Source of the DNA: [Phormidium] sp. ETS-05
Lineage (GTDB): Bacteria; Cyanobacteriota; Cyanobacteriia; Cyanobacteriales; Laspinemataceae
DNA length: 64,000 nucleotides
Direction: 5' to 3'
Assembly: GCF_016446395.1 (NCBI RefSeq)
Contig: NZ_CP051168.1
Coordinates: forward strand, 3,749,579 to 3,813,578
Of the stretch, positions 7,340 through 60,170 are shown piece by piece. The notes below the pieces were generated by a model, which did not search any database, was not told the DNA's origin, and saw only the letters and a list, made by a program, of their open reading frames with translations. The number at the start of each line of letters is the position of its first letter. Position 1 is the first letter of the stretch. Made by a program: the position numbers and the translations under genes.

Positions 7340-7416
7340 AATTTTTCCATGTTTTGATTGAGATGAGTTTGGTATGTGGTAAGTAAATTCAGCTAATTAA
7401 ACAGGATGTCCGTTGG

Positions 7417-8925: not shown

Positions 8926-9155
8926 TCCTCTTTTAAAGTAAATGCACGAAACAGCATTTTTTTGGACGGTTTCCCGGACAAAAATACTAGAGCCTCCTCT
9001 TAAATAAAGAGATGGTTCTAATTTAGTCCCTTAGCCCAATAAAGGCTAAAGCATAAATATGAACATTTGGTAAAGAGTTAGGAAATAATTGGTAAATAAT
9101 TGGTTAAGGTTTGGTTATCTTCTCAGGTTCAGGAGGCAAATTTGGCCCCCTTCTA

Positions 9156-29317: not shown

Positions 29318-30517
29318 TTAAAAATTTCTCATCTGCGGGGGATTATCGGGCAGCGGGGCCATGAGCTGACGCTCTACCATTTGCTGTATTACCACATCCG
29401 GGCGCTCTTTGTCAATAGCTGGTAAATCAAACTCATATTCAGATAAAAAAACTATACGTTGGAAGTTTTCGGCAATCAAAGGAGCCAAATTCAGCGCAAA
29501 TGAATCGTGGAACATCACTGCCCGAGGCAATCTTCTATCCCCAGTGGCGATCGCGAATGGCTGCTTATCCTCTGGCAAATCGGGTCTAGCAATTTCTGGA
29601 TCCGCCGCTCGTGCCACAGATGGTATCCGAGGCGAAAACCTCCGCACCTCTTCGCGCAGCACATCCTTTAATCCTAGCATATTCGCCAAATCCCCACCCT
29701 CCCGGTAAACGATTTCCTGCGCAAAATCCGCCACAGTTAATGGCTTTAATTGGGGAAACCACACCCCCAGATACCGGATAATTTCCTGGTATGCTGTAAA
29801 AACACCCGGTTTGTTCCAATGAGAATCAGTCCGGTGATAAATCCGATAATTATTTTTGGCAGACCGCAAAACATCCCTCACATCAATAATTGCTGATGTT
29901 TCCGCCAGAGGCGGCAGCGAATTTACAGAAAACTTAGAATTAAGCTGTAAATGCTCCATGAGCTGGTCTAAGCGGGATTTTTTCCCCACCGGTTGCAGCC
30001 ATTCCGGCAAGTATTCAGGATATATCGATTGCTTCTCTGGCACAAAAACCACCAAATACCTAATCCCCCGCGCCTGTAACCAATCTCTCCTTTCCTCTAA
30101 AACTTGCTGCCAGTGATTTAACTCAGTTTCCGTAAACGGTGTAGTACCACGGTAAGATTCTAAAGCATAGGGATGCCCATAAAACAGCCACCCATCTTTA
30201 CCGATGATAACTTGCTCCGATGGCGATTGTTGCAAAACCTGAAATAGGAAGCGGTTGTGCCAGTATATTAATTCTTGTCTGCCCCCAAAATTATCTTTAT
30301 AGTATTCCTCAAACACCCGGGGAAACTTTTCTATAGATTTTCGATTAAACTCTAAATTAGGCAGGGATGCTAGTTGGCGCTTTTCCCAGGTGCTAGTCTG
30401 GGTAGTGGGACGGAATGACTGCCATAGGGAAACCATCATCGGCGTCCAAATAGCGGCGAAAAATAAGGTGACAATAATTAAATTACTCAGGTAATGAATT
30501 CCAGATTTTTGGCGCAT
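29318..30517 (-). CDS. AlgJ/AlgX-like DHHW-family protein (partner of MBOAT O-acetyltransferase)
   Basis: N-terminal TM helix, then IYHRTDSHWN (DHHW-type motif). Size and architecture match AlgJ/AlgX SGNH-like polysaccharide O-acetylation proteins. Confidence 0.65.
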   Translation of the reverse strand: MRQKSGIHYLSNLIIVTLFFAAIWTPMMVSLWQSFRPTTQTSTWEKRQLASLPNLEFNRKSIEKFPRVFEEYYKDNFGGRQELIYWHNRFLFQVLQQSPSEQVIIGKDGWLFYGHPYALESYRGTTPFTETELNHWQQVLEERRDWLQARGIRYLVVFVPEKQSIYPEYLPEWLQPVGKKSRLDQLMEHLQLNSKFSVNSLPPLAETSAIIDVRDVLRSAKNNYRIYHRTDSHWNKPGVFTAYQEIIRYLGVWFPQLKPLTVADFAQEIVYREGGDLANMLGLKDVLREEVRRFSPRIPSVARAADPEIARPDLPEDKQPFAIATGDRRLPRAVMFHDSFALNLAPLIAENFQRIVFLSEYEFDLPAIDKERPDVVIQQMVERQLMAPLPDNPPQMRNF

Positions 30518-31927: not shown

Positions 31928-33394
31928 CTAAAATCGAAAATAGATAAACGGGTTATAGGTGCCAGCGGCGAGTTTAGCGGCGCAGGCGAGGAAGATGGCG
32001 GCGAGACAGGTGGTGGTGGTAAGAGAAATAATAATTTCGGCAAAAAAAGCGGTTTTTTCCGTGCAGTTACGGGAAAACTTGTGGTAGAGTTTTACTAAAT
32101 ATGGTAAAATCGGGCAAGACCCAATGATGCCTGCTCCCATTGCTAGCCAAATCTCGGCATTAACATAATATCCCAGATAGTAGGCGGTGTTGTTAGTGTT
32201 GCTGGTTAAATTGGCCATAGCCTGGAGAAAAACCCTAGCATCTCCCAGGCGATCGGCTCGGAAAAACACCCACCCTACCATCACCACCAGTAGGGTGTAA
32301 ATATGGCCCAGGGGTGACAGCCACGGGCGTTTTTCTAGAAATTGCAGTAAACCCAGTCTTTCCCAGATGGCAAACAAACCGTGAAATAATCCCCAAACTA
32401 CAAAATTCCAACTGGCACCGTGCCATAAACCACAGAGAAAAAACACCACCACTAGGTTAAAATAAGTCCTCAAGGGAGACAGACGGCTGCCCCCCAAAGG
32501 AATAAATAGGTAATCCCGAAACCAAGTAGATAGAGAAATATGCCAGCGGCGCCAAAAATCCCGAATTGAGGCGGAAATATACGGATAACGAAAATTTTCA
32601 CAAAAATCAAATCCGAACATCTTTCCCAGACCGATCGCCATATCTGAATAGCCAGAAAAATCAAAATAAATCTGCAAAGTATAGCAGCCAACCGCCACCC
32701 AAGCTAAAGGAAAACTCACCTCCCCAGATGGCAGAGCAAAGATTTTATCAACTGGTGCCGCCAGAGTATTGGCAATCAGCATTTTTTTACCCAAGCCAAT
32801 GATAAACCACCGAATCCCTAGCCCAACTTGTGTAAGATTAATATACCTTTGCTGCAATTGTTGCTCTATATTTTCATATCGCACAATTGGCCCTGCAATT
32901 AATTGGGGGAATAAAGCGATGTATAGTCCCAGCCTAAAAACACTAGATTGAGCTTGAACTCGATGGCGATAAACGTCAACAATATAAGATATGGCTTGAA
33001 AAGTAAAAAAAGATATTCCTATGGGTAATTTAATGTCTGTTTGATTAAATTGAAATCTATAAGAAAAATAATTGAAAAATTGGTTCAAATTTTCAATCAA
33101 AAATGTTTGATATTTAAAATAGACTAAAACCGCCAAGTTGACCCCAATTGCAGCGGCTAAGGCGAGAGCTTTGGGTATTTTAGAGGTAATTTTGGCAATG
33201 GCCAATCCCATCCCATAGTTGAAGGTAATGGATGCCAGCATAATTGCGGCAAAAGCGGGCTCACCCCAAGCATAAAAAAACAGGCTGGCGCCCAAGAGCA
33301 ATAAGTTGCGCAATTTGGTTTCCTGTGCCAGCCAGTGCAATGTGAAAACCAGGGGTAAGAATAAAAACAGAAAAACCGGAGAACTAAAAACCAT
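31928..33394 (-). CDS. MBOAT-family membrane O-acyltransferase (AlgI/DltB-like)
   Basis: 488 aa, multi-TM; MBOAT core FWRRWHISLSTWFRDYLFIPLGGSR with the conserved His. ATG 33394. Confidence 0.85.
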   Translation of the reverse strand: MVFSSPVFLFLFLPLVFTLHWLAQETKLRNLLLLGASLFFYAWGEPAFAAIMLASITFNYGMGLAIAKITSKIPKALALAAAIGVNLAVLVYFKYQTFLIENLNQFFNYFSYRFQFNQTDIKLPIGISFFTFQAISYIVDVYRHRVQAQSSVFRLGLYIALFPQLIAGPIVRYENIEQQLQQRYINLTQVGLGIRWFIIGLGKKMLIANTLAAPVDKIFALPSGEVSFPLAWVAVGCYTLQIYFDFSGYSDMAIGLGKMFGFDFCENFRYPYISASIRDFWRRWHISLSTWFRDYLFIPLGGSRLSPLRTYFNLVVVFFLCGLWHGASWNFVVWGLFHGLFAIWERLGLLQFLEKRPWLSPLGHIYTLLVVMVGWVFFRADRLGDARVFLQAMANLTSNTNNTAYYLGYYVNAEIWLAMGAGIIGSCPILPYLVKLYHKFSRNCTEKTAFFAEIIISLTTTTCLAAIFLACAAKLAAGTYNPFIYFRF

Positions 33395-43244: not shown

Positions 43245-45278
43245 TTAGAAAATCACGATGTCGTTGACGTTGACCTGACCTTGCTGGATAACAGCGATGA
43301 CGGAATCTGTACCGTCAGGATTGAGACCGCCATTGTAATCCCAGTACAGGGTGCCGCCACCTGTGGCCGCCGAATCAAAGACGATCGCCGGTATGGTGGT
43401 GCCGCCGGAGAAAGTGCCGGTGTAGTTCTGACCGGAAGCCACCGCGAAGAAGTCCAGACCACTCCGCAGTTGCTGCCCTTGGGTGGCGAGAGCGAAACCT
43501 GTGTCATCGATGTAGATTTTGTCGATACCGGTATCAAAGTCAGTGATGGTATCGTCGCCTTGGTCGGAACCGTTGTAGTAGAAGCCATCGAAGGAGCCGT
43601 CAATCCCGATGAGGAGGTCAGCACCTTTGAAGCCGTAGAGAGTATCATTGCCAGAACGACCGCTCTCGCCACCGAGGGTGTCGGCTTCCGAGCTACCTAC
43701 GAACAGGTCGTTACCCCCACCGCCGATGAGGGTGTCACTGCTATGGCCTGCCACGAGGATATCGTTGCCCGTGCCACCATCCAAGTAGTTGGGACCGCCA
43801 GCAGAAAGAGCAAACAGGGAGTCGTTGCCTTCACCACCTAACAAGGTGTTGCTGCTGGCAACACCGAGGCTAGTGTTGCCGAAGGGGGTGAGGGTGAGGG
43901 TGTCGTTGCCTGCACCGCCATTGAGGGTGCTGCCCGTTCCCCGGGCGGTGAGGGTGTCGTTGCCTTCGCCACCCAACAAGGAAGCGTTATTGTTTACACC
44001 CACATCTAGGCTGTCATCGCCAGCACCGCCCACGAGGGTGGCAGTGCCGCTGCCAATTAGAGTATCACTGCCTTTGCCGCCATCCATCCAGCTACGGCCA
44101 GCAGCGGTTATGGATAAGTAGTCGTTGTCTGTGGCCGCGTCTTCGTCTCCGTCTTTGGTGCCACCAAAGAGGGTATCACCACTGCTGCCGATGAGGCTGT
44201 CGTTGCCCTTGTCACCGTAGAGCCAGTTGGTGCCGCCGCCCACTTCGGTGAAGATAGTGTCGTTACCTTGACCACCGTAGAGGGTGTTGCGTCCGATGCC
44301 GGTGTTGTTAGCCTCATCCAGCGTCAAGCTGTCGTCACCAGTGCCACCGAGCAGATAGCTATCCACACCGATGTAGGTCATGGTGTCTTTGCCGTCGCCG
44401 CCGATGAGGGTGTGGCGTCCCCGATCGCCCCCTTCCGAGTGCAGGCTGTCGTCACCGATGCCACCATCTAGGAAGTTGGCGCGGGGAACACCAGCTAAGG
44501 TAAACGTGTTGGCGTTGGTGGCACCCTGAAGAGAAGTGTTTTGGTTGCCGGGACTGCTCAGAGCGCTGAGCATCATCAGGGTGTCGTTATCTTCGCCACC
44601 CAACAGGGTATCCCTGTCGCCGATGCCAATCACCAAGTCATTGCCCTTATCCCCGGACAAATAGTTATCCCCAGGGTTGGTCGGCGGACCAAAAACACCT
44701 TGCGTGGTGACCACACCTACCGAGCCGGTGCCCGACAAGCCTTGGGTGGTGGAGACTCCCAAGCTAGAGATGGGGGTATTGAAAGGCACGAAGCCACCCG
44801 TACCGCTACTACCACTTCCGGAAAGCTCCACCACCTGGAGGGTGTCATTATCCATCCCGCCGAAGAGGGTATCATCTCCTAAGCCAGAACCGCTGATGAA
44901 GTCGGTGCCGGTGTTACCGAAGGCCAGGTTCCCCCCGCCGCCGTTACCAAAGTTGAAAATATCGTCGTCGCCTAGACCATAGACGATATCGCCGCCCAGG
45001 GTGCCTCTGGACTCAAAGTAGTCATCTCCAAAATCGCCGAAAAACAGGCTGTTGCCCGCCAAGCTGCGCAGGACATCATTATCCTGGCCGCCAAATACCG
45101 TGTCATTGGTGCCAGAAGAAGTGAGGGAGTCATTGTCTCTGTTCCCTGAAATCAGACTGCCGCCCACTGTATCGCTGGTGATGAAGTCAGTGCCATCCAG
45201 GCCAAAAATCGAATCTGGGCCTGCATTGGTAGCACTCATATCCAGCGTGTCGTCGCCAGTAGTTAGGATTCTAACCAT
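43245..45278 (-). CDS. RTX-type calcium-binding repeat protein (hemolysin-type GGxGxDxL repeats), probably secreted
   Basis: Dozens of GGxGNDxL nonapeptides (GGQGNDTIF, GGEGNDTLT, GGAGNDTLT...), 677 aa, acidic, no Cys. GAGGAG RBS. Confidence 0.8.
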   Translation of the reverse strand: MVRILTTGDDTLDMSATNAGPDSIFGLDGTDFITSDTVGGSLISGNRDNDSLTSSGTNDTVFGGQDNDVLRSLAGNSLFFGDFGDDYFESRGTLGGDIVYGLGDDDIFNFGNGGGGNLAFGNTGTDFISGSGLGDDTLFGGMDNDTLQVVELSGSGSSGTGGFVPFNTPISSLGVSTTQGLSGTGSVGVVTTQGVFGPPTNPGDNYLSGDKGNDLVIGIGDRDTLLGGEDNDTLMMLSALSSPGNQNTSLQGATNANTFTLAGVPRANFLDGGIGDDSLHSEGGDRGRHTLIGGDGKDTMTYIGVDSYLLGGTGDDSLTLDEANNTGIGRNTLYGGQGNDTIFTEVGGGTNWLYGDKGNDSLIGSSGDTLFGGTKDGDEDAATDNDYLSITAAGRSWMDGGKGSDTLIGSGTATLVGGAGDDSLDVGVNNNASLLGGEGNDTLTARGTGSTLNGGAGNDTLTLTPFGNTSLGVASSNTLLGGEGNDSLFALSAGGPNYLDGGTGNDILVAGHSSDTLIGGGGNDLFVGSSEADTLGGESGRSGNDTLYGFKGADLLIGIDGSFDGFYYNGSDQGDDTITDFDTGIDKIYIDDTGFALATQGQQLRSGLDFFAVASGQNYTGTFSGGTTIPAIVFDSAATGGGTLYWDYNGGLNPDGTDSVIAVIQQGQVNVNDIVIF

Positions 45279-48528: not shown

Positions 48529-48561
48529 GTAGGTTGGGTTGAGGAACGAAACCCAACCTAC
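48529..48561. repeat. hairpin repeat GTTGGGTTGAGGAACGAAACCCAACCTAC (intergenic copy)
   Basis: 9-bp stem ggttgggtt/aacccaacc; the same element occurs twice in frame inside the 49509..54035 CDS (about 51867-51953). Confidence 0.8.
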
Positions 48562-49422: not shown

Positions 49423-49509
49423 AAAACTAGAAACCGGGTTTCCGCGGAGAATCGCCGTCTAGGTACGAGGTCCCCCAGAGAAACCCGGTTTCTTTCCCCG
49501 CCGTGCCCC
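49423..49509. repeat. 87-bp repeat element R2, direct repeat of R1; abuts the stop of the giant glycosyltransferase gene
   Basis: aaaactagaaaccgggtttccgcggagaatcgccgtctaggtacgaggtcccccagagaaacccggtttctttccccgccgtgcccc. Confidence 0.85.
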
Positions 49510-52500
49510 TACTGGCGATAAAGTTCCACGGCTCGGTTGTAATTCGGCGTACTAGGGTCGTTGGCTCCGGCTTCTAGGCGATCGAGTAGAGGTTGGAGAA
49601 AACTGTTTTCCTCCTCGGTGAGGGGTTGAGCTAAAAACCCGCTCTTTATCAAGGCTTGATGAGCTTTGCCCACATCGCCATTGTAGAAATCTGGGATTTG
49701 CTCTGGGGACACGACAAGCCAAAAATCAGCTAGTTCTCGGCGTAGTTGGCGCAGTTCGGCGATGATGGGCTGGTCCGTGGGGTCGATGTAATGGAGATTG
49801 GCACAACCGATGAGTTGGTTAATAAATTCTTTCACCCCTCCTTTCAAAGAAGGGACACTTTGGAGTCCCATCTCCCCGTCAAGGGGTTGGGCGAAGCATC
49901 CGCGTACAGACTTCTCCGTTTCACCGAGAGTTTTGGGCGCGGATGCTTCGCCCCTACCGAGTTGCCATTGATGGAAAATTTGCTGGAACAAGTTGCCGAT
50001 TTTGGCGCCATAGGTGCGACTGTCGAGAAATGCTGGGTTGGCTTGCATTTTTGCCAGAATTTGCTGCCGGTATTGCTGGCGCAGTTGGGGGTTATTGCCC
50101 AGGGCAATGGCTAATTTGATATAACTCTCGTCACCAGTGGCGATGAAATCGGTGATTTGCAGTTCTCGCATGAGGGCGGATGCTTGGCGGAACCGCAGGG
50201 CATTCCCTTCCACAACCACTGGAGGGAGTCCCACTTCTAGGGGGTCTAATAGGGATGTGGCGCCGCCATAGGGGTAAGAATCGAGATAAACATCAGCTAG
50301 TTGTAAAACTTGCTTAATTTCCAGGCGGGAAGGCAGGGTATTTAGCACCTTGAGGCGGTTGGGGGCGATGCCATATGTGGCAAATACAGCCTGCATTTGC
50401 TCAATAAAAGTCATTTTCGGATAAGCCTGCATCCATGCGGGGCCGAATGGATATAACACTAAGACGGAATTGGGGACAGCGGCGATAATTTTTGCCCAGG
50501 TTTGCAACAATTCGGGGGTGATTTTATAGAAGTTGGCACCGGAAACGAATACTAAGGCTTCTGGGGCAACGCCGATGCTGTTTCTGTCGGAGAAAGCCAC
50601 CGCCCTTGGAGTCTGGAGGGTAGGCAAACCGTAGTTGGGATAATGGAAGCAAAGACCACTACCAGGAATATTGACTAATAGCTCTCGATATTGGTCTTGA
50701 CATGATGGTGGTGCGGTTAAGTCCCCAGCAATGTAGCAATCAATGTGGGGCATTCCTGTGGTGGTGGGTGAAGATAGGGATGTGACTTGTAAGCGTGCGA
50801 GGCGGTGCATGGGTAGCCAGTCAAAACTGGAGTTACCGGCTGTGAGGTTGGTGCCAATGAAGAGGATATCTAGGTCGTCATTGCGCATTGCTTGCACCTG
50901 GCGGTTTAAATCTGAGGGCAGTTTGATAAATTTATCTGCCAGACGCTGGCAATATTGCTCTAGGGGGTTGCCATTGGCGTGGAGGGTGTAGAGGATAATC
51001 TCAAACTGGTCGCGGTTGAGGTGTTCGATTACGGGAATGGTGACAAAGGTTTCGGTTTTGGGGTTGAAGTGGATGTTAAGGACTCCCAACCGAATTTTGT
51101 TTCGTTGTGGGGAGCGTGGGGGAATTTGCCAATTTAGCTGGCAGCCCCGGGTTTTCAGGGCAAATTCGGCGATGTCAGAGCGCTTTATATAGGTGTCTTT
51201 GAGGTTTCCTGAGCTGAAATATAGGGGGAGGAAAAAGGCGCGCTGGGCAAATAACCATGATATTTCTTGCCAGATGGGGGCGTCGGGGTTCGCTAAAATT
51301 CGCTGGTGGAGATATTCGATTAATCCATGCAGGTAGCTGTAGTATTTTGCGGTTTCGCCGATTTCCTGGAAATATTGGGGTGTGTCTAGAAGAAAGTGGA
51401 GAAAGTCTTTGATGAACCATTTGGGGATGGGGGCGCTTTGGTATTGTAATGGGAGTTTGTAGGCGCGGCGGTAGAGCATTGCTGCGAGAATGGATTGCAG
51501 GGCTAGAGGATGGTTAAAGCCGCTGGCAATTTTGGCTGATATTTCTTGGAATAGGGGCTGCTCCGCTTCGCTGATGGGGATATCTGTGATGCTGTGGTTG
51601 ATTTTCAGGCCGCTGTCAAGTAAGGCGCGTTGTGTTTTGCCTAGGTCTCCTTTGTAGGCGGTTTCTAGGTGTTCTGATGGTGTGGCTAACCAGGCATTGG
51701 CGATTTGCTGCCGTAGTTGGCGGATGTGGGCTAATGTATTGGGGTCGGATGGGTTTTGTTCGTATTTTTGCAGGATATCCGTTAGTCCCTTCGTCTCCCC
51801 ATCCCGGCGTAGGATGGGTTGCTTGGGCTCATCGGGATAAGTCGAAGTGCCCGTCGGGTTGAGTGTTGGGTTTCGTTCCTCAACCCAACCTACGGGAGGG
51901 AGATTGGTAGAGTTGAGTGTTGGGTTTCGTTCCTCAACCCAACCTACGGGAGGAAGATTGGTAGCTTGGATGAGTGCATGGCGGACGGTGGCGGCCATTT
52001 TTGCCCAGGAGAATTTTTGGGCTTGAACGAAACCGGCGGCGATGAGGGGTTGGCGGACTTGAGGGTTTTGGATGTTGATGAGTGCTGTGGTTAGGGCGGG
52101 GATGTCATCATCTTTGATGTAAAGTGCGGCGGTTCCGGCGGCTTCGGGAATGGCGCCGTTGGGTGTGGTGATGACGGGACAACCGCAAGCCATTGCTTCG
52201 ATGATGGGTAAGCCGAAGCCTTCATATTTGGAGGGATAGACGAGGGCAATGGCGCCGGAGTAGGCGGCGGCGAGTTCACTGTCATTGAGGGTGAGGAGGT
52301 GAACTTTGGCATCGGGGGCGCTGGCTTTTAATTGAGGTTCTAGTTGGGGGCGACCGCCAACGCAGATGATTTCTATTTCATGGCTCTGGGGGAGTTGGGC
52401 GAAGGCTTGGAAGAAGAGGATGGTGTTTTTATAGCCGTTGAATCCGGCGCGATCGCCCACGATGACAAAATAAGGTTTGGTGATGTGGTACTTGGCTTTA

Positions 52501-54035
52501 AATTGGTCAATGGCGGCAGCATTGACGGGTTGAAAATGGCTGCTGATGCCGCAATGGGCTACAGTCACCGAGTCTGGGGATATTTCCGGGAAGCATTTTA
52601 CCAAGTCTTTGGCAGTATTTTCAGAAATGGAAATATAGGCGGTGGCGTGGCGGATGGCTTGGTGTTTTTCCTGCCACATGGGGGCGCTGAGGTCGGCTTT
52701 GATGATTTCGGGAATCATATCATAAGCCAGGAAGACGGAGGGGGTGGTGATGGGGGTGGTGTAGTAGGTGGAGATGAATAAGTCGGCTTGTTCGGCGTCG
52801 CAGATTTGTTGAAGCATTGCCCGGTCTGCTTCGGTTTGGTTGTAGTTGTAGGGGTTGATGCAGAGGTATTTGATACCGGGGATGCGGGGAGCGGTTCCGG
52901 CGCGGTCTAACAGGAGGATATTTTGAGCGAATTCACTACCTGCCCATTCGCGCAGCAGAGATGTCCAGACGCGGGCGATACCGCTGTTGTTGATTTGGAA
53001 AAATACGCCATCAATGATGATTTTTTTTACGTTTTTATCTAAACTTTGACTGGTTGGAAAAAACATTTCTTGGCAGATGCTTGCAGATTTATTTAGGTGG
53101 GATGACAATTGATTTAACCTATTGGCATTTTGAGCTTTTAACTGAGCCAATGCCCCTTCTGTTTCCCCGGAGCGCGCCTGTGCTTCTAGAATACCTTTTA
53201 ACACCCACACATATTTCGTCATTATGCAGGCAACGGTGGATATAGTGGCAGCATCTTTTTCTATATCTTTGGTAAAGCGGCTGTTAATTACCTGCAAGTG
53301 AGCCTCAATCATCTGCCACAATAAATCTGGTGCTGATAATTCTGCTGTTGACTTATTGAAGATTTTTTCTAGGTATTTATCCCAACTGCCAAAATCATCG
53401 AGGCGGCGCAGGTGTAATAGTGGTTCTGGCAAGCAAACAAAAGTTCCCCAGGTGGAGAGTTCGGCGAGGATAATATTATCGGGACCGACGACATTTCTGG
53501 CTAAACCGGTTTGACGCAAAGCCGATGCTTTGATAACGCCGTAGATGGGGTAGCAATATCCCAGCCCCCATAAGACTGTATGAAATCGTGATATCACATC
53601 TAATCCCTGGGTGTCAATAGCGCCGGGGATGATTTTTAATGGTTTGCCATTCCCATCAATGGTGACGGCTCTAGGATAGCATAAAACGGCAGATTTATCT
53701 CGTGCAAAACCTGCTAGACAAGCGGAAAGAAAGGTGGGTTGCCAAATATCGTGACCGGCGGCCCAGACGAAATAATCTCCTATGGCTAACTCAAAGACTC
53801 GATTAAAGTTTTTGGTGGCACCTACGTTAGTGGGATGGGAATAGTAACGGATGCGCTGGTCTTTGGCGGCGTATTCGGCGCTGATTTGGGGTGTGGCATC
53901 CGAGGAGGCATTGTCGGAGATAATTAGTTCAAAGTTTTGGTAATCTTGAGCTAGGATAGCATCTATTGTCTGGCGCAGGTAGCGCGCTTCGTTATATACC
54001 GGCATTCCGATGCTAACCAAAGGTTTTGTCTCAGT
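49509..54035 (-). CDS. giant multidomain glycosyltransferase: GT2 + GT4-like + GT41 (O-GlcNAc-transferase-like) modules with a C-terminal domain
   Basis: N-terminal GT2 (VSIGMPVYNEARYL...ISDNASSDAT...DYFVWAAGHDIW), a GT4 module (EGFGLPIIEAMACGCPVITT), a linker with two in-frame PVGWVEERNPTLN hairpin-repeat insertions, then a GT41-like module (YLDSYPYGGATSLLDPLEVGLPPVVVEG). Start set to ATG 54035 with SD AGGAG; the track start GTG 54098 and ATG 54062 lie in STRR sequence. Confidence 0.75.
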   Translation of the reverse strand, partial: TETKPLVSIGMPVYNEARYLRQTIDAILAQDYQNFELIISDNASSDATPQISAEYAAKDQRIRYYSHPTNVGATKNFNRVFELAIGDYFVWAAGHDIWQPTFLSACLAGFARDKSAVLCYPRAVTIDGNGKPLKIIPGAIDTQGLDVISRFHTVLWGLGYCYPIYGVIKASALRQTGLARNVVGPDNIILAELSTWGTFVCLPEPLLHLRRLDDFGSWDKYLEKIFNKSTAELSAPDLLWQMIEAHLQVINSRFTKDIEKDAATISTVACIMTKYVWVLKGILEAQARSGETEGALAQLKAQNANRLNQLSSHLNKSASICQEMFFPTSQSLDKNVKKIIIDGVFFQINNSGIARVWTSLLREWAGSEFAQNILLLDRAGTAPRIPGIKYLCINPYNYNQTEADRAMLQQICDAEQADLFISTYYTTPITTPSVFLAYDMIPEIIKADLSAPMWQEKHQAIRHATAYISISENTAKDLVKCFPEISPDSVTVAHCGISSHFQPVNAAAIDQFKAKYHITKPYFVIVGDRAGFNGYKNTILFFQAFAQLPQSHEIEIICVGGRPQLEPQLKASAPDAKVHLLTLNDSELAAAYSGAIALVYPSKYEGFGLPIIEAMACGCPVITTPNGAIPEAAGTAALYIKDDDIPALTTALINIQNPQVRQPLIAAGFVQAQKFSWAKMAATVRHALIQATNLPPVGWVEERNPTLNSTNLPPVGWVEERNPTLNPTGTSTYPDEPKQPILRRDGETKGLTDILQKYEQNPSDPNTLAHIRQLRQQIANAWLATPSEHLETAYKGDLGKTQRALLDSGLKINHSITDIPISEAEQPLFQEISAKIASGFNHPLALQSILAAMLYRRAYKLPLQYQSAPIPKWFIKDFLHFLLDTPQYFQEIGETAKYYSYLHGLIEYLHQRILANPDAPIWQEISWLFAQRAFFLPLYFSSGNLKDTYIKRSDIAEFALKTRGCQLNWQIPPRSPQRNKIRLGVLNIHFNPKTETFVTIPVIEHLNRDQFEIILYTLHANGNPLEQYCQRLADKFIKLPSDLNRQVQAMRNDDLDILFIGTNLTAGNSSFDWLPMHRLARLQVTSLSSPTTTGMPHIDCYIAGDLTAPPSCQDQYRELLVNIPGSGLCFHYPNYGLPTLQTPRAVAFSDRNSIGVAPEALVFVSGANFYKITPELLQTWAKIIAAVPNSVLVLYPFGPAWMQAYPKMTFIEQMQAVFATYGIAPNRLKVLNTLPSRLEIKQVLQLADVYLDSYPYGGATSLLDPLEVGLPPVVVEGNALRFRQASALMRELQITDFIATGDESYIKLAIALGNNPQLRQQYRQQILAKMQANPAFLDSRTYGAKIGNLFQQIFHQWQLGRGEASAPKTLGETEKSVRGCFAQPLDGEMGLQSVPSLKGGVKEFINQLIGCANLHYIDPTDQPIIAELRQLRRELADFWLVVSPEQIPDFYNGDVGKAHQALIKSGFLAQPLTEEENSFLQPLLDRLEAGANDPSTPNYNRAVELYRQ

Positions 54036-54074
54036 CATTTGCAATAACTCCTGTTTTGTCATCGGGTAGGGATT

Positions 54075-54130
54075 CTTTTGTCCTTGGTCATTTGTCACTT
54101 TTCAAACTACAAAGGACAAATGACAAATGA
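54075..54130. repeat. STRR array
   Basis: ttttgtccttggtcatttgtcacttttcaaactacaaaggacaaatgacaaatgacc. Confidence 0.7.
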
Positions 54131-54138
54131 CCATCTGT

Positions 54139-54915
54139 CTATTTTCTCCTCAACCAAGCGGCAGGCCAATGAGTAATGTTAGCAGTCAATTCGCTTTCAT
54201 TAAACGGCCAAGCGGGTTGCTCTAAGATAAATTCCGGGTGGGTTTCGGCAAAAGCTACTGCTGCTGCTGCTGGATTATCCCATTTCCATTCGGGATTGCC
54301 GCGTGGGACGAGCGAGAGTTCTCTCATAATACCATCAGTGGCAACCAGATAAGAACCGGGAGTCACCAAATCGCAGTAAGCCTCCAACTCGGCTAAAACG
54401 TGTTGTTTAGTATGACAGGAGTCCAAAATCACCATTGCAACTTCTCCTGGTTGCACGAGAGATTTAACCTGACTGACGATTTCTGGGGCGATCGAACTTC
54501 CTTCTACCAAAGTGATGCGGGGAAATAGTTCGTGGTTTTCGATCGCCTGACGGTTGTGGGGTCTAATTTCTATATCGATGCCAATTACTCGTCCCCGGTC
54601 GATCGCCTTGCACAAACTGGCATAATAGATGAGGGACCCCCCATGAGCTACCCCCGTTTCCACGATTACATCTGGTTTCACCCGATATATGACCTCCTGG
54701 ATGCGAATCATATCTTCGGGAAGCTGGATGATGGGGCGTCCCATCCAGCTAAAGGTATAAGTATATTTTTGATTCCATCCCAGTTTTAGCCATGCCTCGG
54801 AAATCAATTCAAAAGCGGCTTTTGAATACAGGTCTATTTCCCTGAATTCACCATCAATCTCTTGGATGAGGATTTGTGCATCAGTATCGATAGTTAATTT
54901 CATAGCTGTTACCAT
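54139..54915 (-). CDS. CmcI/cephalosporin-hydroxylase-family class I SAM methyltransferase (sugar O-methyltransferase-like)
   Basis: VETGVAHGGSLIYYASL... and DSCHTKQHVLAELEAY are typical of the CmcI-like O-methyltransferase family. The start lies next to the upstream stop. Confidence 0.65.
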   Translation of the reverse strand: MVTAMKLTIDTDAQILIQEIDGEFREIDLYSKAAFELISEAWLKLGWNQKYTYTFSWMGRPIIQLPEDMIRIQEVIYRVKPDVIVETGVAHGGSLIYYASLCKAIDRGRVIGIDIEIRPHNRQAIENHELFPRITLVEGSSIAPEIVSQVKSLVQPGEVAMVILDSCHTKQHVLAELEAYCDLVTPGSYLVATDGIMRELSLVPRGNPEWKWDNPAAAAVAFAETHPEFILEQPAWPFNESELTANITHWPAAWLRRK

Positions 54916-55823
54916 TTATTCATTAGTTCTTTTTGCCACCAAGTAATCGTCTGTTCCAGGCCAGCTTCGATAGTAACCTTTGGTTGCCACCCCACTTCCT
55001 CGGTGAGGCGGCGAACATCAGCTACCAGTAAAGGTGGTTCGTTGGCAGCAGCGGGAATAGCTCCCAACTCAATCAAATCTGGCCGATTGATTTGGGATGC
55101 AATTTGATAAATTATATCCTTTAAAGTAACGGGAAAACCGGAAGCGATATTCACCGCGCCTAAAACTTGGCTATCTAATAAGGAAACCAAGGCATCAGCC
55201 ACATCAGTAACGTAGAGAAAATCTCTAATTTGATTGCCGTGGGAACAGCGAGCTGGCTCAGCTTCCAATAGACAACGAATTACGGTGGGGACTAATCTCT
55301 GGGGATGCTCAAAAGGGCCGTAAACAAAGAAAATACGTCCCCAAGCATAACTAAGCCCTGTTTGTCTGGCAAAAGCGGCGAGCATACTTTGCAAAGAGTG
55401 TTTGCAGGTGCCGTAAACTGTGTTTGGTGACAGGGGTGTAATCTGTTCTGAACAGTATCCGTACTGCCAATCATATTCGGCGCAAGTCCCCGCCATCACT
55501 ACTCGCTGTCCTCCATTTTGGGCGAATGCCTGCAACAATTCTAAACTGGCTTGTACCCAGCGAAAATTTTCTGGGGAAGTCCAATATTTTCCAGGCATGG
55601 CATTCCATGCCAAGTGCAGCCAGTGAGTAGGTTGCACTTGGGCGATTAACGGGTGAATTTGGCGGAAGTCTAGTAAATTTGCTTGATGCCAAGATAATCC
55701 CGATGCAGTTTGGATAATTTTTTTGGAGACTACGGCATGGACTTGATACCCTTTGGATAGAAGCAAAGGTAAACATTGCCTACCGATGAATCCCGTTGCC
55801 CCAGATACCAGAACTTTTTTCAT
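54909..55823 (-). CDS. NAD-dependent epimerase/dehydratase family protein (SDR; likely 4-keto-sugar reductase/epimerase)
   Basis: MKKVLVSGATGFIGRQ Rossmann motif, YxxxK (YGTCK); 304 aa. ATG overlaps the rfbC stop (ATGA). Confidence 0.8.
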   Translation of the reverse strand: MKKVLVSGATGFIGRQCLPLLLSKGYQVHAVVSKKIIQTASGLSWHQANLLDFRQIHPLIAQVQPTHWLHLAWNAMPGKYWTSPENFRWVQASLELLQAFAQNGGQRVVMAGTCAEYDWQYGYCSEQITPLSPNTVYGTCKHSLQSMLAAFARQTGLSYAWGRIFFVYGPFEHPQRLVPTVIRCLLEAEPARCSHGNQIRDFLYVTDVADALVSLLDSQVLGAVNIASGFPVTLKDIIYQIASQINRPDLIELGAIPAAANEPPLLVADVRRLTEEVGWQPKVTIEAGLEQTITWWQKELMNKW

Positions 55824-56353
55824 GGGATAAAATCCTCATATGCTGAGTCTCTAGGGGAGATGATGCGGTGGTCAGCCGGTGGCCATTCTATCCCAAAAGC
55901 GGGGTCATTCCACCGGATACCACGGGCTGATTCAGGATGATAAAATTCTGCCATCTGGTAAAATACTTCGCTGTTATCTTCGAGAGTTTGAAACCCGTGG
56001 GCGAATCCTTCGGGGATGTACAACTGGCGGCGGTTGTCGGCGGTCAGCTCGGCGGCGATCCATTGTTTAAATGTGGGCGATTCGGGACGGATGTCTATAA
56101 TTACATCATAAATCGCGCCTTTTGTACAGCGGACGAGTTTGGCTTCTGGGTAGGGGGCAATTTGGTAGTGCATACCCCGCAGGGTGCCTTTTTTGTGGTT
56201 GAAGGATATGTTACACTGGACAAAGCTAGTTTTTAATCCTTTTGCGGCAAATTCTTGCTCGCAAAATGTGCGGGCAAAGAAGCCCCTAGAATCGGTTACT
56301 GGCTCTGTTTCTATGAGATAAGCGCCTGTTAATTTGGTTTCCTTAAAAATCAT
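55820..56353 (-). CDS. rfbC: dTDP-4-dehydrorhamnose 3,5-epimerase-family cupin (RmlC/RfbC-like)
   Basis: GAYLIETEPVTDSRGFFARTF...RGMHYQ...QLYIPEGFAHGFQTL, 177 aa: canonical RmlC motifs. Confidence 0.85.
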   Translation of the reverse strand: MIFKETKLTGAYLIETEPVTDSRGFFARTFCEQEFAAKGLKTSFVQCNISFNHKKGTLRGMHYQIAPYPEAKLVRCTKGAIYDVIIDIRPESPTFKQWIAAELTADNRRQLYIPEGFAHGFQTLEDNSEVFYQMAEFYHPESARGIRWNDPAFGIEWPPADHRIISPRDSAYEDFIP

Positions 56354-56356
56354 ACC

Positions 56357-57589
56357 TCAGATAATTTTTAATTTGGGTATGGGAATGATAAATTTACCTC
56401 CAAGCTGTCGATATTCCGCCTGCTGGGATAGAATTTCATCGGCGAAGTTCCAAGTAAGTAGTAGCACGTAGTCCGGCATTATTTCTAGGAGCTTTTCCGG
56501 CGGATATATGGGTAAGTGGGTGCCGGGAGTATAGCGTCCTTGCTTGACGGTACTGCGGTCAACGACAAAATCTAGGGTTTCTTGGCCAATGCCGAAATAG
56601 TTGAGGAGGGTGCTGCCTTTGGCGGAGGCGCCGTAGGCGGCGATGCGCTGGTTTTGGGTTTTTAATTGACCCAAGATTTCTAGAAGTTCGTGCCGTAATT
56701 GTTCCACATCAGCGGCGAATTTCTGGTAAAATTCTAATAAGTCCATTCCCCATTGGGCTTCTGATTGCAGGATTTGCCGGACGGCTTCTGATGTAGTACC
56801 TTGCTGGCCTGCAAATATGCGCAATGAGCCGCCGTGGATGGGCAATTTTTCCACATCGATGATGCTTAAACCGTGGCGCTGAAAGAGTCTGTCTAGGGCG
56901 GTGAGGGAGAAATAGCAGAGGTGCTCATGGTAGATGGTATCAAATTCTACATTGTCGATCAAGTCTTTGATGTAAGGAACTTCTATGATGGCGATGCCCC
57001 TGGGTTTTAAAAGTTGGCTGATACCAGCAACAAAACCGTTTAAGTCCGGGACGTGAGCGAGGACGTTGTGAGCGTGGATGATATCAGCTTGCTGATCCTG
57101 GTTGCGGAGGTTGATAGCGAGTTTTTCTCCGAAAAATTCGCAGATGGTATTAATCCCTCGCTGTTCTCGGGCGACGTGGGCGATGTTGGCGGCTGGTTCG
57201 ATGCCGAGGACAGGGATGCCTTGCTGCTGATAATACTGGAGGAGATAACCGTCGTTGCTGGCGATTTCTACTACTAAGCTGCTTTGGTTCAAGTGCAGCT
57301 CGGCGGTGAGGCGGTGGGCAATTTGGCGGGCGTTTTCTAAAACTGTGTCGGAGAAGGAGGAGAAGTAAAGGTATTCCCGAAACAGCTTTTCTGGGGGGAC
57401 GGTTTCGGTGATTTGAACGAGGGTGCAGTGGGGACAAAAGGCCAAATCTAGGGGGTATTTTGGCTCTGGGTGGTTGAGCTGCTCTGAGGAGAGCAGGGCG
57501 TTGGCGAGGGGGGTTTTGCCGAGGGAGAGAATTAGTTCTAAGCCTGATTTGCCGCAGGAGCGACAGGGTGGATAGGGGCTGGTGTTCAT
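56357..57589 (-). CDS. NDP-hexose C-methyltransferase-family protein (zinc ribbon + class I SAM MTase + C-methyltransferase C-terminal domain)
   Basis: N-terminal Cx2C...Cx2C (CRSCGKS...CPHCTL), SAM motif VVEIASNDG, and 410 aa match TylCIII/CDP-sugar C3-methyltransferase-like enzymes. The start overlaps the rfbG stop (TAATG). Confidence 0.7.
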
Positions 57590-58587
57590 TATCGGGAAGC
57601 TCCGGCGGTGCTGAAAAAGTCTTTGTACCAGTCGATCGTGCTAGACAAGCCTTCATCTAGGGAGAATAGCGGCTGCCAGTCCAGCATTTTTCTGGCTTTG
57701 GCGGCGCTGAGGGATTGATGGCGGATTTCGTTGCTGGCTTGGGAAAGGATTTCTGGTTCTAGGTGTGAACCCATGAGGTTTAAGATGCGATCGACTAATT
57801 CTAGGACACTGAGGGGGGTTTCGTTGGCAAAGTTGAAGGCATGACCGCGCAGGTCCGGTTTGGCGGCGAGCTGTTCAGCGAGAAGAATGTAGGCGGCGGC
57901 CCCGTCTTCCACATAGAAGTAGTCGCGGATGTATTGTCCGTCGGAGCGGATGATGGGTGGCTTTCCTCGGAGGATGGAGCGGATGGTGCCAGGAACGATG
58001 CGGTTCCAGTTGAGGTCGCCGCCACCGTAGAAGTTGCCACAGCGAGTGATGGCAACGGGGAGGTTGTAGGTGGTGGCGTAGGTTTGGGCGATCGCGTCGG
58101 CACAGGCTTTGCTCACGTCGTAAGGGTGGCGTCCCAACAGGGGGGTTTCCTCATCGTAGGGGAGTTGGGTGGCTTCTCCGTAGGCTTTATCTGAGGAGGC
58201 GAGGACTATTTGCTTAACCGTGGGGTGGTGGCGACAGGCTTCTAAGAGTGCCCATGTACCGGCGATGTTGCTTTGGAAAGTGGGGATGGGGGTGCGGTTG
58301 GCGACGCCGACAATAGTTTGAGCCGCCAAGTGAATTACGGTATCAATTTCATATTCCGAGAGGATGCGTTCCAAAAGTGCTTGCTGTTGGATGTCCCCGT
58401 AGGCAATTTTGATTTGGCTTTGAAGCTGGCCACGTAGCAGGGGGCTTTGGGGGACCCAATCGCGCACCAAGCACACCACATCGGCGCCGAGATTGACCAG
58501 GCGTTTGACCAGCCAGGACCCGACTAAGCCGGTGGCGCCGGTGACGAAGGTGGGGCGGTCTTGCCAGAAGCTGTTGGATGCTGTCAT
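57589..58587 (-). CDS. rfbG: CDP-glucose 4,6-dehydratase
   Basis: [24 protein letters not shown] matches the RfbG N-terminus (FWxGKxVFxTGHTGFKGxWL); SDR YxxxK. ATG 58587 overlaps the rfbF stop (ATGA); ATG 58593 is the alternative. Confidence 0.85.
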
Positions 58588-59354
58588 GCCCATAGTTTCC
58601 AAGGAGGGTTGCCGGTTCCCCAAAGGGTTTCCAGGCGGTGCAAGTCCCGAAGGGTGTCCATGCACTGCCAAAAGCCGTGGTGGCGGTAGGCGGCGAGCTG
58701 GCGATCGCGTGCTAACCGTTCCAGTAAATCTGCTTCCAAGCTGGTATCGTCCCCCTCTAGATAATCAAAAATTTCCGGTTCAAACACCAAGAAACCACCA
58801 TTAATCCAGCCTTCGCCAATTTGGGGCTTTTCGGTAAACTCCGCCACCAAATCCCCATCAAAAATCAAGCCGCCATAGCGCGCCGGAGGTCTCACCGCCG
58901 TTACCGTTGCCATACAACCGCTGCGGCGGTGGAACTCCAGCAAATCCCTGAGATTAATATTACTTACCCCATCGCCATATGTCACCATAAATGTCTCCTG
59001 ATGCAACCAAGGTCTCAGGCGTTTTACCCGTCCCCCGGTGAGGGTGGACAGTCCGGTATCCATCAGGTGAACTAGCCAATCTTCCACGGTTTTTTCCTGC
59101 GCTTGTACCTCCCCGGTGGCGAGGTTGACGCTCATACTGCCGTTGAGGGTGTAGTAGGATAAGAAGTAGCTTTTGATGACTTCGCCTTTGTAGCCCAAGG
59201 CAATGAAAAATTCCTTGAAACCGTAGTGGGCGTAGCACTTCATAATGTGCCACAGAATCGGTCGCTCGCCGATTTCTACCATCGGTTTAGGTTTCACTTC
59301 GGTTTGTTCCGCTAGGCGGGTGCCCAAGCCCCCGGCAAGAATGACAACTCGCAT
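58584..59354 (-). CDS. rfbF: glucose-1-phosphate cytidylyltransferase
   Basis: [38 protein letters not shown]...: canonical RfbF sequence, 257 aa. Start reset to ATG 59354; the track start at 59378 reads STRR sequence. Confidence 0.9.
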
Positions 59355-59378
59355 GGTAATTGCTTTGTCCCTTGTCAT

Positions 59379-59600
59379 TTGTCATTTGTCACTTGTCACT
59401 TGTCACTTGTCCCTTGTCACTTGTCACTTGTCCCTTGTCACTTGTCACTTGTCACTTGTCACTTGACAAATGACCAAGGACAAAGGACAAAGGACAAAGG
59501 AATCCCTACCCAAGGACAAAAGAATCCCTACCCAAGGACAAAAGAATCCCTACCCAAGGACAAATGACAAATGACAAATGACGATTAGCCATATAGAGGG
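59379..59600. repeat. long STRR array (TTGTCAC/TTGTCCC then GGACAAAG) with a 3x repeated aggacaaaagaatccctaccca unit
   Basis: ttgtcacttgtcacttgtcccttgtcacttgtc...gacaaaggacaaaggacaaaggaatccctacccaaggacaaaagaatccctacccaaggacaaaagaatccctaccc. Confidence 0.85.
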
Positions 59601-59608
59601 CGATTATA

Positions 59609-59968
59609 TCAGCTCACTTGCTCTAAATACTGGTTAACATCTTCGATGAGGCGGGTGAGTTCGGCTTCGGTACTGATGCGAATCCGATCGTCCCTTAGTG
59701 TAATCAGCACTTTGGCGGCAAAGGGATTGGGGTAAATGTTGGGGTTGCAAAAAATTTCTAAGAAGACATCGCCAGTATAGCGATACTCCATCGGTTTTTG
59801 GGGTGCGGTTCTGGCACCGCCACCGCCGGGAGCAGCTTTGGCGGCAACTGATTTCAGCTTCTCCATCAGCTCGCTGAGGTGCGATCGCAGCTCGAGAGCC
59901 GCTTGGGGGGTGAAGCTAAAGGCGAGGGAACCTTCGCCGAGATTGAGGGTGAGGTGAGAAAGGGACAT
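59609..59968 (-). CDS. hypothetical protein
   Basis: ORF from ATG 59968 (MSLSHLTLNLGEGSLAFSF...), 119 aa. The N-terminal 37 codons of the track ORF derive from STRR and hairpin repeats. No family recognised. Confidence 0.45.
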   Translation of the reverse strand: MSLSHLTLNLGEGSLAFSFTPQAALELRSHLSELMEKLKSVAAKAAPGGGGARTAPQKPMEYRYTGDVFLEIFCNPNIYPNPFAAKVLITLRDDRIRISTEAELTRLIEDVNQYLEQVS

Positions 59969-59994: not shown

Positions 59995-60130
59995 GTCGAG
60001 AAACCGGGTTTCTCGCAGAAACCCGGTTTCTATCCTGGAGAGTCCGCAAGTCCGCTTGTCCCTTGTCCCTAGAGGACAAATGACTAAGGACAAATGACTA
60101 AGGACAAATGACTAGGGACAAATGACTAAG
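59995..60130. repeat. GAAACCCGGTTTC hairpin pair followed by STRR (GACAAATGACTAAG)n
   Basis: gagaaaccgggtttctcgcagaaacccggtttctatcc ... ggacaaatgactaaggacaaatgactaaggacaaatgactagggacaaatgactaagg. Confidence 0.8.
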
Positions 60131-60170
60131 GACTAGAAAAGGATATCATAGAGTTGTCCTAGTTGAGGAC

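Follow-up and report, generated by a model that had tools for sequence, protein, structure and literature searches.

A predicted CDP-linked branched-sugar operon in [Phormidium] sp. ETS-05 ends in a fused GT2-GT4-GT41 glycosyltransferase and neighbours a candidate RTX acceptor

Which sugar does a cyanobacterium build with a full set of enzymes for a cytidine diphosphate (CDP)-activated hexose carrying both a C-methyl and an O-methyl group, and to what would the giant glycosyltransferase encoded in the same gene set attach it? The question is raised by seven minus-strand genes at 49509-59354 of a 64,000-nucleotide stretch of [Phormidium] sp. ETS-05 DNA (contig NZ_CP051168.1, positions 3,749,579 to 3,813,578; the whole stretch is referred to as the window, and all positions are counted within it). 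A reading made from the letters alone, the original prediction, had seen in these genes a complete CDP-hexose pathway coupled to three glycosyltransferases in one protein. We find this functional reading to be largely right, and add to it that the sugar cassette is widespread, that the glycosyltransferase fusion is widespread as well, and that there is a candidate acceptor. We tentatively favour a reading in which the cassette would make a vinelose-type CDP sugar and the fused enzyme would assemble a short glycan whose acceptor is a secreted protein, in all probability the RTX (haemolysin-type calcium-binding) protein encoded next to the operon; our confidence in it falls a little short of even. 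The sugar chemistry, the order in which the modules act and the choice of acceptor are read from enzyme families and synteny, both of which are observed.

All seven genes are present where they had been predicted. The open reading frame (ORF) listing holds seven same-direction ORFs on the minus strand between 49509 and 59378, the opposite strand has no ORF of comparable length there, and every family assignment was borne out by Pfam and NCBIfam profile scores (Table 1). Read from the sequence, rfbF and rfbG are joined by an ATGA overlap, as are the genes for the RmlC-type epimerase and the short-chain dehydrogenase/reductase (SDR), while rfbG and the C-methyltransferase gene share a TAATG; the SDR and CmcI-family genes overlap by 7 nt, or lie 5 nt apart should translation start at the second ATG. 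The claim that adjacent genes are joined by stop-start overlaps thus stands insofar as coupling is tight and four genes overlap, but not for the 3-nt gap between the C-methyltransferase and RmlC genes, nor for the spacing before the giant glycosyltransferase gene, which amounts to 40-100 nt depending on the start codon chosen and is partly filled by heptamer repeats. Co-transcription of the seven genes is implied by this arrangement. A promoter and terminator scan returned no more sites than shuffled sequence, and is therefore uninformative on operon structure.

The order of enzyme families agrees with the predicted pathway logic of CDP activation, 4,6-dehydration, C-methylation, epimerisation, reduction and O-methylation. 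RfbF scores 354.5 bits against the glucose-1-phosphate cytidylyltransferase model TIGR02623 (cut-off 300.25), its residues 1-255 lying on profile positions 1-255, and would make CDP-D-glucose. This would then be converted to CDP-4-keto-6-deoxy-D-glucose by the RfbG-like protein, whose best solved relative is the Yersinia CDP-glucose 4,6-dehydratase 1rkx (E 5e-43). Its SSDKAY aligns with TSDKCY of 1rkx, and YxxxK is present as YDVSK. In such dehydratases an active-site Asp-Lys pair (SDK) marks the CDP type, and an Asp-Glu pair the enzymes that use deoxythymidine diphosphate (dTDP) sugars. The third protein has all the domains of an S-adenosylmethionine (SAM)-dependent C-methyltransferase, each above its cut-off (zinc ribbon PF08421, 83.5 bits; PF13489, 75.4 bits; C-terminal PF08484, 203.7 bits). 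With both CxxC pairs (four zinc-binding Cys), the SAM motif I EIASNDG and the active-site motif YHEH (in IYHEH) intact, the identity that had been given to it holds. Among 80 ORFs of the C-methyltransferase cluster from related loci, 71 keep YHEH and 61 keep E[IV]ASNDG; the latter form of motif I is found in the clade of the window's enzyme, whereas the aligned dTDP-type MtmC has EIGSNTG.

The RmlC-type protein (TIGR01221, 201.1 bits against a cut-off of 155.75; PF00908, 234.8 bits) would invert C5 and thereby lead into the L series, and could act at C5 alone if C3 is already methylated. The SDR would reduce the C4 keto group: we read it as a C4-ketoreductase because a DegT aminotransferase and an acyltransferase stand at the same position in two related loci (L082 and L087). 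Its weaker matches include the GDP-6-deoxy-4-hexulose reductase Rmd (2pk3, E 6e-15) and the RmlD model (E 8e-4). The sixth protein belongs to the CmcI family (PF04989, 247.7 bits against a gathering score of 23.2; CmcI structure 2bm8, E 8e-6) and would O-methylate a hydroxyl of the sugar, be it still bound to the nucleotide or already transferred. With only 90.1 bits against NF045824, far below the cut-off of 400, the protein does not qualify as an orthologue of the rhamnosyl O-methyltransferase of mycobacteria. As such, the predicted product is a CDP-6-deoxy-3-C-methyl-O-methyl-L-hexose.

At which carbon would the methyl group be placed? C-methylation by this TylC3/TcaB9-type enzyme would take place at a carbon beside the keto group, most likely C3. 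The full-length matches of the C-methyltransferase in the PDB are MtmC, KijD1 and TcaB9 (E 7e-92 to 1e-84), of which MtmC and KijD1 are named sugar 3-C-methyltransferases by their depositors and TcaB9 is another; all three have the YHEH motif in common with the window's enzyme. Methylation at C5 would instead give a 5-C-methyl (gem-dimethyl, noviose-like) O-methylated 6-deoxyhexose, assembled by the same logic. The C4 keto group has C3 on one side and C5 on the other, and either would be methylated by the same chemistry, so that gene content cannot decide between them. The gene set in fact equals that of the noviose pathway, with NovW, NovU, NovS and NovP as epimerase, C-methyltransferase, ketoreductase and O-methyltransferase. 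Against this stands, besides the three solved relatives, that the sole CDP-linked methyl-branched sugar known to us, vinelose, carries its methyl at C3. Altogether we consider methylation at C5 improbable.

CDP-vinelose, CDP-6-deoxy-3-C-methyl-2-O-methyl-L-talose, was reportedly found in Azotobacter vinelandii by Okuda, Suzuki and Suzuki in the late 1960s. It shares with the predicted product the CDP activation, the 6-deoxyhexose, the C-methyl branch, the L series and the O-methyl group, and the six enzymes of the window are the minimal set that would lead to it from glucose-1-phosphate. The structure of vinelose fixes the stereochemistry at C3 and C4 and the position of the O-methyl group, whereas the product of the window is predicted from genes alone. 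The dTDP-L-mycarose-type pathways (TylC3/TylK/TylC2) offer the same C-methyltransferase fold and motifs and the same succession of C-methylation, 5-epimerisation and 4-ketoreduction; they differ in using dTDP and 2,6-dideoxy or 3-amino substrates for secondary metabolites, where the window has CDP and no genes for 2-deoxygenation. With the rfb pathway for CDP-3,6-dideoxyhexoses of Salmonella and Yersinia the cassette shares the first two steps, glucose-1-phosphate cytidylyltransferase and CDP-glucose 4,6-dehydratase, but the E1/E3 genes for 3-deoxygenation are not in the window, and the window's dehydratase stays below the cut-off of TIGR02622. The analogy to yersiniose that the original prediction had drawn is a poor and misleading one: yersiniose owes its branch to the thiamine-dependent enzyme YerE, which attaches two carbons, while that of the window's sugar would be a methyl group from SAM.

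The same prediction had placed the product in a rare sugar class. The cassette is in any case not rare in genomes. One scan of species-representative genomes with the C-methyltransferase matched at least 600 stretches, at least 591 of them encoding a relative, and the best 80 of these loci, with 58-73% identity to the window's enzyme, were examined; they come from Pyrinomonadaceae, Planctomycetota, Chloroflexota, Rokubacteria, Proteobacteria, Sericytochromatia and two cyanobacteria. Their common core has the order rfbF, rfbG, C-methyltransferase and RmlC, and one of three tailoring variants follows: SDR and CmcI (the window, Laspinema, Planctomycetaceae, Oscillochloris, Fuerstiella), an FkbM methyltransferase with a short SDR and CmcI, or DegT with CmcI. 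The cassette is found in other cyanobacteria, such as Laspinema, and is syntenic across Acidobacteriota, Planctomycetota, Chloroflexota and Proteobacteria as well. Roughly 32 of the 80 loci, from other phyla, have behind the cassette a GT2 gene whose product shares 40-49% identity with the giant enzyme's N-terminal module. In Acidobacteriota the cassette usually comes right after Wzm and a Wzt with a Wzt_C domain, and in these linked loci the branched methyl sugar may serve as the chain-end signal of an O-polysaccharide. Wzm and Wzt_C stand directly before the cassette in L002, L006, L008, L012, L013, L030, L034, L036, L059 and others. Our literature search found no description of a six-gene CDP cassette of this kind. 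The pSymB genes SMb21416-18 of Sinorhizobium meliloti were considered as the same cassette and set aside: a cytidylyltransferase and a 53%-identical C-methyltransferase are present, and the gene between them is listed as a CDP-glucose 4,6-dehydratase (PMC4053727), but RmlC, SDR and CmcI of the window type are absent, which makes it a different variant.

So what would the giant enzyme do with this sugar? An 88%-identical orthologue (P0001) begins with the same MTETKPL as the protein started at ATG 54038, the start used in the original prediction. The three predicted modules of the window's enzyme are real, and the GT41 module is backed by a confident structure model in addition to its profile score. 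The GT4 module keeps the EX7E motif as EGFGLPIIE in its translation. We modelled the C-terminal 814 residues from a 45-sequence alignment (predicted local distance difference test, pLDDT, 84.6; predicted template modelling score, pTM, 0.75), which gave, in order, a disordered linker, a helical domain, a two-lobed GT-B fold (model residues 287-670), a disordered stretch and a second helical domain. The first helical domain takes the place of the tetratricopeptide repeat (TPR) region of OGT and SPINDLY, and Foldseek alignments to these two span 600-750 columns; SPINDLY, T. terrenum OGT (TtOGT), human OGT and Xanthomonas OGT (XcOGT) came first, with probability 1.00, and NGT next. Both helical segments match one and the same stretch of a 555-residue GT2 protein in another locus (L010). 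In phmmer searches the GT41 module likewise found SPINDLY (E 6e-26) and OGT (E 1e-23) far ahead of NGT (E 6e-3), and the Lys in its FYKIT aligns with a conserved Lys of SPINDLY, in LAKIT.

These relatives are protein glycosyltransferases. With OGT, SPINDLY, XcOGT, T. terrenum OGT and OgtA the module shares a helical repeat domain followed by a two-lobed GT-B fold, with a Lys aligned to the one that binds the nucleotide sugar, and differs from them in being fused behind GT2 and GT4 modules; its similarity to HMW1C/NGT is weak. Three glycosyltransferases of the types GT2, GT4 and GT41 in one 1509-residue chain imply the building of an oligosaccharide rather than the addition of a single sugar. 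The giant soluble enzyme could then be a one-polypeptide assembly line: the OGT/SPINDLY-like helical and GT41 module would begin a glycan on Ser or Thr of a protein in the cytoplasm, the GT4 module would extend it, and the GT2 module would put on the CDP-derived sugar as the outer residue. GT2 is the likely transferase for the CDP sugar because homologous stand-alone GT2 genes follow the cassette in other phyla, as described above. No transmembrane-like segments were seen in the proteins checked, namely the giant glycosyltransferase, the C-methyltransferase, the SDR, the CmcI-family protein, the TPR-GT41 protein and the RTX protein.

A triple-glycosyltransferase module of this kind had been thought undescribed. 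This stands in that we found no characterised member of the family, but the giant enzyme itself is not unique. It is matched by 518 proteins at E <= 1e-30, almost all from filamentous cyanobacteria, including Laspinema, Microcoleus, Kamptonema, Phormidium, Okeania, Trichodesmium, Planktothrix, Nostoc, Anabaena and Leptolyngbya, and therefore the GT2-GT4-GT41 fusion is a trait of a family and not a peculiarity of the window. These relatives have 1200-2600 residues, with varying numbers of GT2, GT4, methyltransferase and GT41 modules. A metagenome scan with the GT41 alignment confirmed four loci, its patterns being dominated by a generic GT4 motif. The linker between the GT4 and GT41 modules of the window's enzyme contains an in-frame tandem duplication of 54 bp, which encodes NLPPVGWVEERNPTLN twice; it is missing from P0001, and the segment is disordered in the model. 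The 54-bp unit holds a palindromic dispersed element, GTTGGGTTTCGTTCCTCAACCCAACCTAC, which has three copies in the window against none expected, the third exact copy being intergenic at 48529-48557, downstream of the DUF3288 gene.

Could the giant enzyme build a polysaccharide on a lipid instead of a glycan on a protein? It would then polymerise an O-antigen-like, sheath or exopolysaccharide (EPS) chain on polyprenol, with the branched sugar as a cap at the chain end and export genes elsewhere in the genome. The position of the cassette directly behind Wzm and a Wzt_C-bearing Wzt in Pyrinomonadaceae and other phyla agrees with this, since in known systems it is a modified chain end that Wzt_C recognises. 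Additional methyltransferase domains, such as terminator enzymes have, are present in many homologues of the giant enzyme, and the resemblance extends to the O-antigen enzymes WbdA/WbdD and WbbB, which likewise unite several glycosyltransferase modules (with a methyltransferase, as in the homologues) in one soluble protein and make a methylated chain end plausible. We know of no WbdA/WbdD or WbbB-type system with a GT41 module, and the top relatives of the C-terminal module in both sequence and structure are all protein glycosyltransferases. Moreover, among the window ORFs scanned there is neither Wzm/Wzt nor Wzx/Wzy, priming phosphoglycosyltransferase or ligase, which sets the locus apart from those systems. 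An MBOAT/AlgX-like O-acetylation pair in the window would suit a polysaccharide, as would the abundant sulfated EPS that ETS-05 makes (PMC7226003). Analysis of that EPS gave ten common sugars only, by identification against standards (PMC7226003), and since only sugars with standards can be identified in this way, its composition neither supports nor excludes a branched sugar. On balance a lipid-linked product, although the main rival, seems to us somewhat unlikely.

If, as we favour, the glycan is built on a protein, the neighbourhood of the operon points to which one. The window shares one gene order with its closest relative, an Oscillatoriaceae genome assembled from a metagenome (MAG; L082), and with two Laspinema genomes (L085 and L086): a CDF transporter gene and an ORF of 119 residues, then rfbF, rfbG, C-methyltransferase, RmlC, tailoring genes, CmcI and the giant glycosyltransferase, and thereafter the convergent DUF3288 and TPR-GT41 genes and an RTX protein of 674-705 residues. 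RTX proteins at the syntenic site are 80% identical to that of the window in L082, 43% in L085 and L086, and 33% in Oscillatoria PCC 10802 (L010). Although the locus is rearranged in PCC 10802, the RTX gene and rfbF-rfbG-C-methyltransferase have stayed close to TPR-GT41, a GT2 that shares the helical domain of the giant enzyme, CmcI-SDR-RmlC, a GT4 and a sulfotransferase. Furthermore, a 47%-identical RTX gene in L089 lies beside TPR-GT41 and an ABC/HlyD pair for type I secretion, and in Limnospira a related RTX gene comes after a GT4 and a sulfotransferase-methyltransferase. C-methyltransferase genes also adjoin homologues of the giant glycosyltransferase in Microcoleus (L084) and Oscillatoria SIO1A7 (L087).

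The RTX protein of the window is 100% identical to WP_199245543.1 of [Phormidium] sp. ETS-05 and begins with MVRILTTGDD, with no N-terminal signal peptide. It is rich in Gly (21%), Asp (12%) and Ser plus Thr (19%), with 13 GxGxD motifs and 16 NxS/T sequons, and belongs to a family of 640-720 residues that is found in Laspinema, Microcoleus, Okeania and Limnospira. Proteins of the oscillin type have been linked to gliding motility since 1997. Oscillin itself is a highly glycosylated RTX protein of 646 residues that forms fibrils on the S-layer of Phormidium uncinatum (PMC3034196, PMC12475490). The window's protein is of the same RTX type as oscillin and the glycosylated cyanobacterial surface protein SwmA. 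It resembles oscillin in length (677 against 646 residues), in its Gly/Asp repeats, in coming from a gliding Oscillatoriales strain and in lacking a signal peptide; it is known from its gene and is likened to oscillin by description. The RTX protein would be glycosylated in the cytoplasm and then exported by a type I system. The acceptor had been called unknown. A candidate now exists, in that the conserved neighbours point to an oscillin-like RTX protein, and its acceptor role would follow from that position. We also considered N-glycosylation of the NxS/T sequons by an HMW1C-like enzyme, and rejected it on account of the GT41 module being far nearer to OGT and SPINDLY than to NGT; the sequons themselves give this idea no weight, because NDT and NDS are a general feature of RTX repeats.

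The convergent TPR-GT41 protein has the canonical stand-alone layout of bacterial OGT homologues, with OGT (E 4e-81) and SPINDLY (E 1e-64) as its PDB matches, and we propose that it acts, together with the DUF3288 protein, on the same RTX substrate. The two genes are also kept as an overlapping pair in L082, L085 and L086. In Limnospira indica (L088, 6628-11992) a PF12000-type GT4 and a sulfotransferase lie with the oscillin-like RTX gene, and both families occur in the PCC 10802 form of the locus too (L010, 18116-20253), hinting at sulfated glycans on or near oscillin-like RTX proteins.

Would another protein serve as well? The acceptor may be a secreted or surface protein other than the RTX protein, such as a type IV pilin, or the enzyme may modify many cytoplasmic proteins in an OGT-like regulation. 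Pilin genes do adjoin a homologue of the giant glycosyltransferase and a convergent GT41 gene in Leptolyngbya ohadii and in Nostoc sp. DSM 114159, which suggests that the secreted filament proteins served by the pair may differ from lineage to lineage. In Nostoc punctiforme, motility requires the TPR-GT41 gene ogtA, which is placed alongside type IV pilus components (PMC6495340). No pilin gene was detected among the window ORFs scanned, however, while the RTX gene is a conserved neighbour in five genomes, and an elaborate, dedicated sugar pathway with swapping at the level of strains is hard to reconcile with regulatory cytoplasmic acceptors. We thus hold an acceptor other than the RTX protein to be very improbable.

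The swapping concerns the tailoring genes. Between the window and L082 the core of the cassette, the modules of the giant enzyme and the convergent and RTX proteins are well conserved, whereas the CmcI-family proteins have diverged and the SDR is without an orthologue in L082 (Table 1). At 7449-9962 of L082, a hexapeptide acetyltransferase, a divergent CmcI and a DegT aminotransferase replace the window's SDR and CmcI (54139-55823), which are nearest to those of Laspinema (63% and 80%, respectively) and PCC 10802 (67% and 77%). This difference looks like a recent swap, by which near-identical frames would yield a 4-hydroxy sugar in the window strain and a 4-acetamido sugar in L082. Swapped tailoring genes in a conserved frame are to be expected where diversifying selection acts on an exposed epitope; O-antigen serotype switches follow this pattern. 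A bolder proposal would be that gliding Oscillatoriales have in this locus a machinery dedicated to glycosylating their oscillin-type RTX surface fibrils: the OGT-like module, fused to two extender modules, would assemble a defined oligosaccharide on the still unfolded RTX protein in the cytoplasm, ahead of type I secretion, with a vinelose-type cap varied by swaps of the tailoring genes. We regard this as rather doubtful; if true, it would identify the genes for CDP-vinelose-type sugars and describe a fused, single-polypeptide, GT41-seeded pathway for protein O-linked oligosaccharides.

We must however take into account several points that weigh against a vinelose-type sugar carried by the RTX protein. 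The dehydratase scores only 216.6 bits against TIGR02622, under the cut-off of 278.45, and at 183 bits is likewise under the cut-off of the dTDP-glucose dehydratase model. The nearest solved relatives of the SDR are not 4-ketoreductases but the UXS decarboxylases, MoeE5 and epimerases. The methyltransferase family also includes the C5-methyltransferase NovU, so that the methyl group may sit at C5 instead of C3, and the match of the product to CDP-vinelose is a putative one. Furthermore, the cassette is linked to Wzm/Wzt polysaccharide export in other phyla, and its sugar thus has no necessary connection with proteins. As for the acceptor, an Arthrospira homologue of oscillin, NIES39_A01430, has been reported (PMC2853384), but the window's RTX protein is only 32% identical to a 663-residue Limnospira RTX protein, which may or may not correspond to NIES39_A01430. 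A more distant RTX relative in Microcoleus (L090) has no glycosyltransferase neighbours, a homologue of the giant glycosyltransferase in L097 has no RTX, GT41 or sugar genes nearby, and in Leptolyngbya ohadii (L091, 17977-24197) and Nostoc sp. DSM 114159 (L092, 16922-19865) type IV pilin genes are the neighbours instead. The adjacency of the RTX gene may partly reflect shared descent, as it is seen mainly in fairly close relatives. Both the assignment of genes to a product and that of genes to an acceptor are what we infer for this locus.

Every enzyme described here falls into a known family, and nothing is categorically new. To our knowledge, a CDP-dependent pathway for SAM-methylated branched sugars has no characterised genes, and in the literature searched we found no characterised member either of such a pathway or of the GT41 fusion family. 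A single characterised cassette would provide an annotation for at least 591 loci in numerous phyla of soil and water, and probably also the genes for CDP-vinelose, whose description dates back more than 50 years. The fusions of GT2 and GT4 with an OGT-like module are abundant and unstudied in filamentous cyanobacteria, and suggest that bacterial GT41 enzymes can seed oligosaccharides and not just single sugars. At the least, the conserved neighbourhood provides a concrete and testable candidate for the glycosylation of oscillin-type surface glycoproteins, in a strain that is cultured and whose surface polymers are already being studied.

Table 1. Positions of the features in the window, with the supporting profile or model and the identity to the counterpart in L082.
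Feature	Position	Strand	Support	Identity to L082
Conserved ORF, 119 aa; possible eighth gene upstream of rfbF	59609..59968	-	no Pfam match	93%
rfbF, glucose-1-phosphate cytidylyltransferase (to CDP-D-glucose)	58584..59354	-	TIGR02623 equivalog, PF00483	98%
rfbG-like extended SDR, probable CDP-glucose 4,6-dehydratase	57589..58587	-	TIGR02622, 1rkx	98%
SAM-dependent NDP-hexose C-methyltransferase	56357..57589	-	PF08421 + PF13489 + PF08484	96%
RmlC-type 3,5-epimerase of 4-keto-6-deoxyhexose	55820..56353	-	TIGR01221, PF00908	87%
Extended SDR, putative C4-ketoreductase	54909..55823	-	PF01370 151 bits	no orthologue
CmcI / rhamnosyl O-methyltransferase family, putative sugar O-methyltransferase	54139..54915	-	PF04989	45%
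Giant soluble glycosyltransferase, 1509 aa (1529 aa if started at GTG 54098)	49509..54038	-	GT2-GT4-GT41	
GT2 (GT-A) module	53319..54014	-	PF00535 105.6 bits	94%
GT4 (retaining GT-B) module	51969..53006	-	PF13692 78.9 bits, PF00534 69.3 bits, PF13439	96%
Tandem duplication, 54 bp x 2, GT4-GT41 linker	51858..51964	-	Tandem Repeats Finder score 207	
All-helical domain before the GT41 catalytic domain	51150..51803	-	model residues 51-268, helix pLDDT mostly >85	
GT41 catalytic GT-B domain, OGT/SPINDLY type	49944..51095	-	PF13844 99.5 bits	89%
C-terminal helical domain	49524..49835	-	model residues 707-810; resembles start of the first helical domain	
DUF3288 protein, 95 aa	48144..48431	+	PF11691 E 8e-40; overlaps stop codon of TPR-GT41 gene	
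Convergent TPR + GT41 protein, 825 aa	45670..48147	+	TPR families + PF13844 96 bits	82%
RTX (haemolysin-type calcium-binding) protein, 677 aa, proposed substrate	43245..45278	-	PF00353 110.7 bits	80%

In each of the four syntenic genomes the 119-residue ORF has rfbF on one side and the divergent gene of the CDF transporter on the other; it keeps this position at an identity of about 70% in Laspinema, and may belong to the operon as a unit. The spacer of about 250 nt between this ORF and rfbF is occupied, at 59365-59582, by dense arrays of the heptamers TTGTCAC, GACAAAG and GACAAAT and by a 22-mer. Heptamer arrays recur at 60042-60133, between the CDF gene and the 119-residue ORF, and at 54109-54131, just before the start of the glycosyltransferase gene.

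Rfam and tRNA scans of the window gave no match, and the rest of it is ordinary cyanobacterial chromosome, with genes for the Mg-chelatase subunit ChlH, sucrose synthase, pentapeptide-repeat proteins, phytochrome-like kinases and CP12. The AlgX-like SGNH protein and the MBOAT protein are encoded at 29318-30517 and 31928-33394, about 1.4 kb apart on the same (minus) strand. AlgI/AlgX-type pairs serve the O-acetylation of polysaccharides; this one is about 20 kb from the operon and has no obvious link to it. Finally, a fusion of a GH65 glycoside phosphorylase with a HAD (beta-phosphoglucomutase-like) domain, a sucrose synthase and a GT4 follow each other in a row at 1581-8981 on the minus strand, and may form a cluster for compatible solutes or sucrose turnover.

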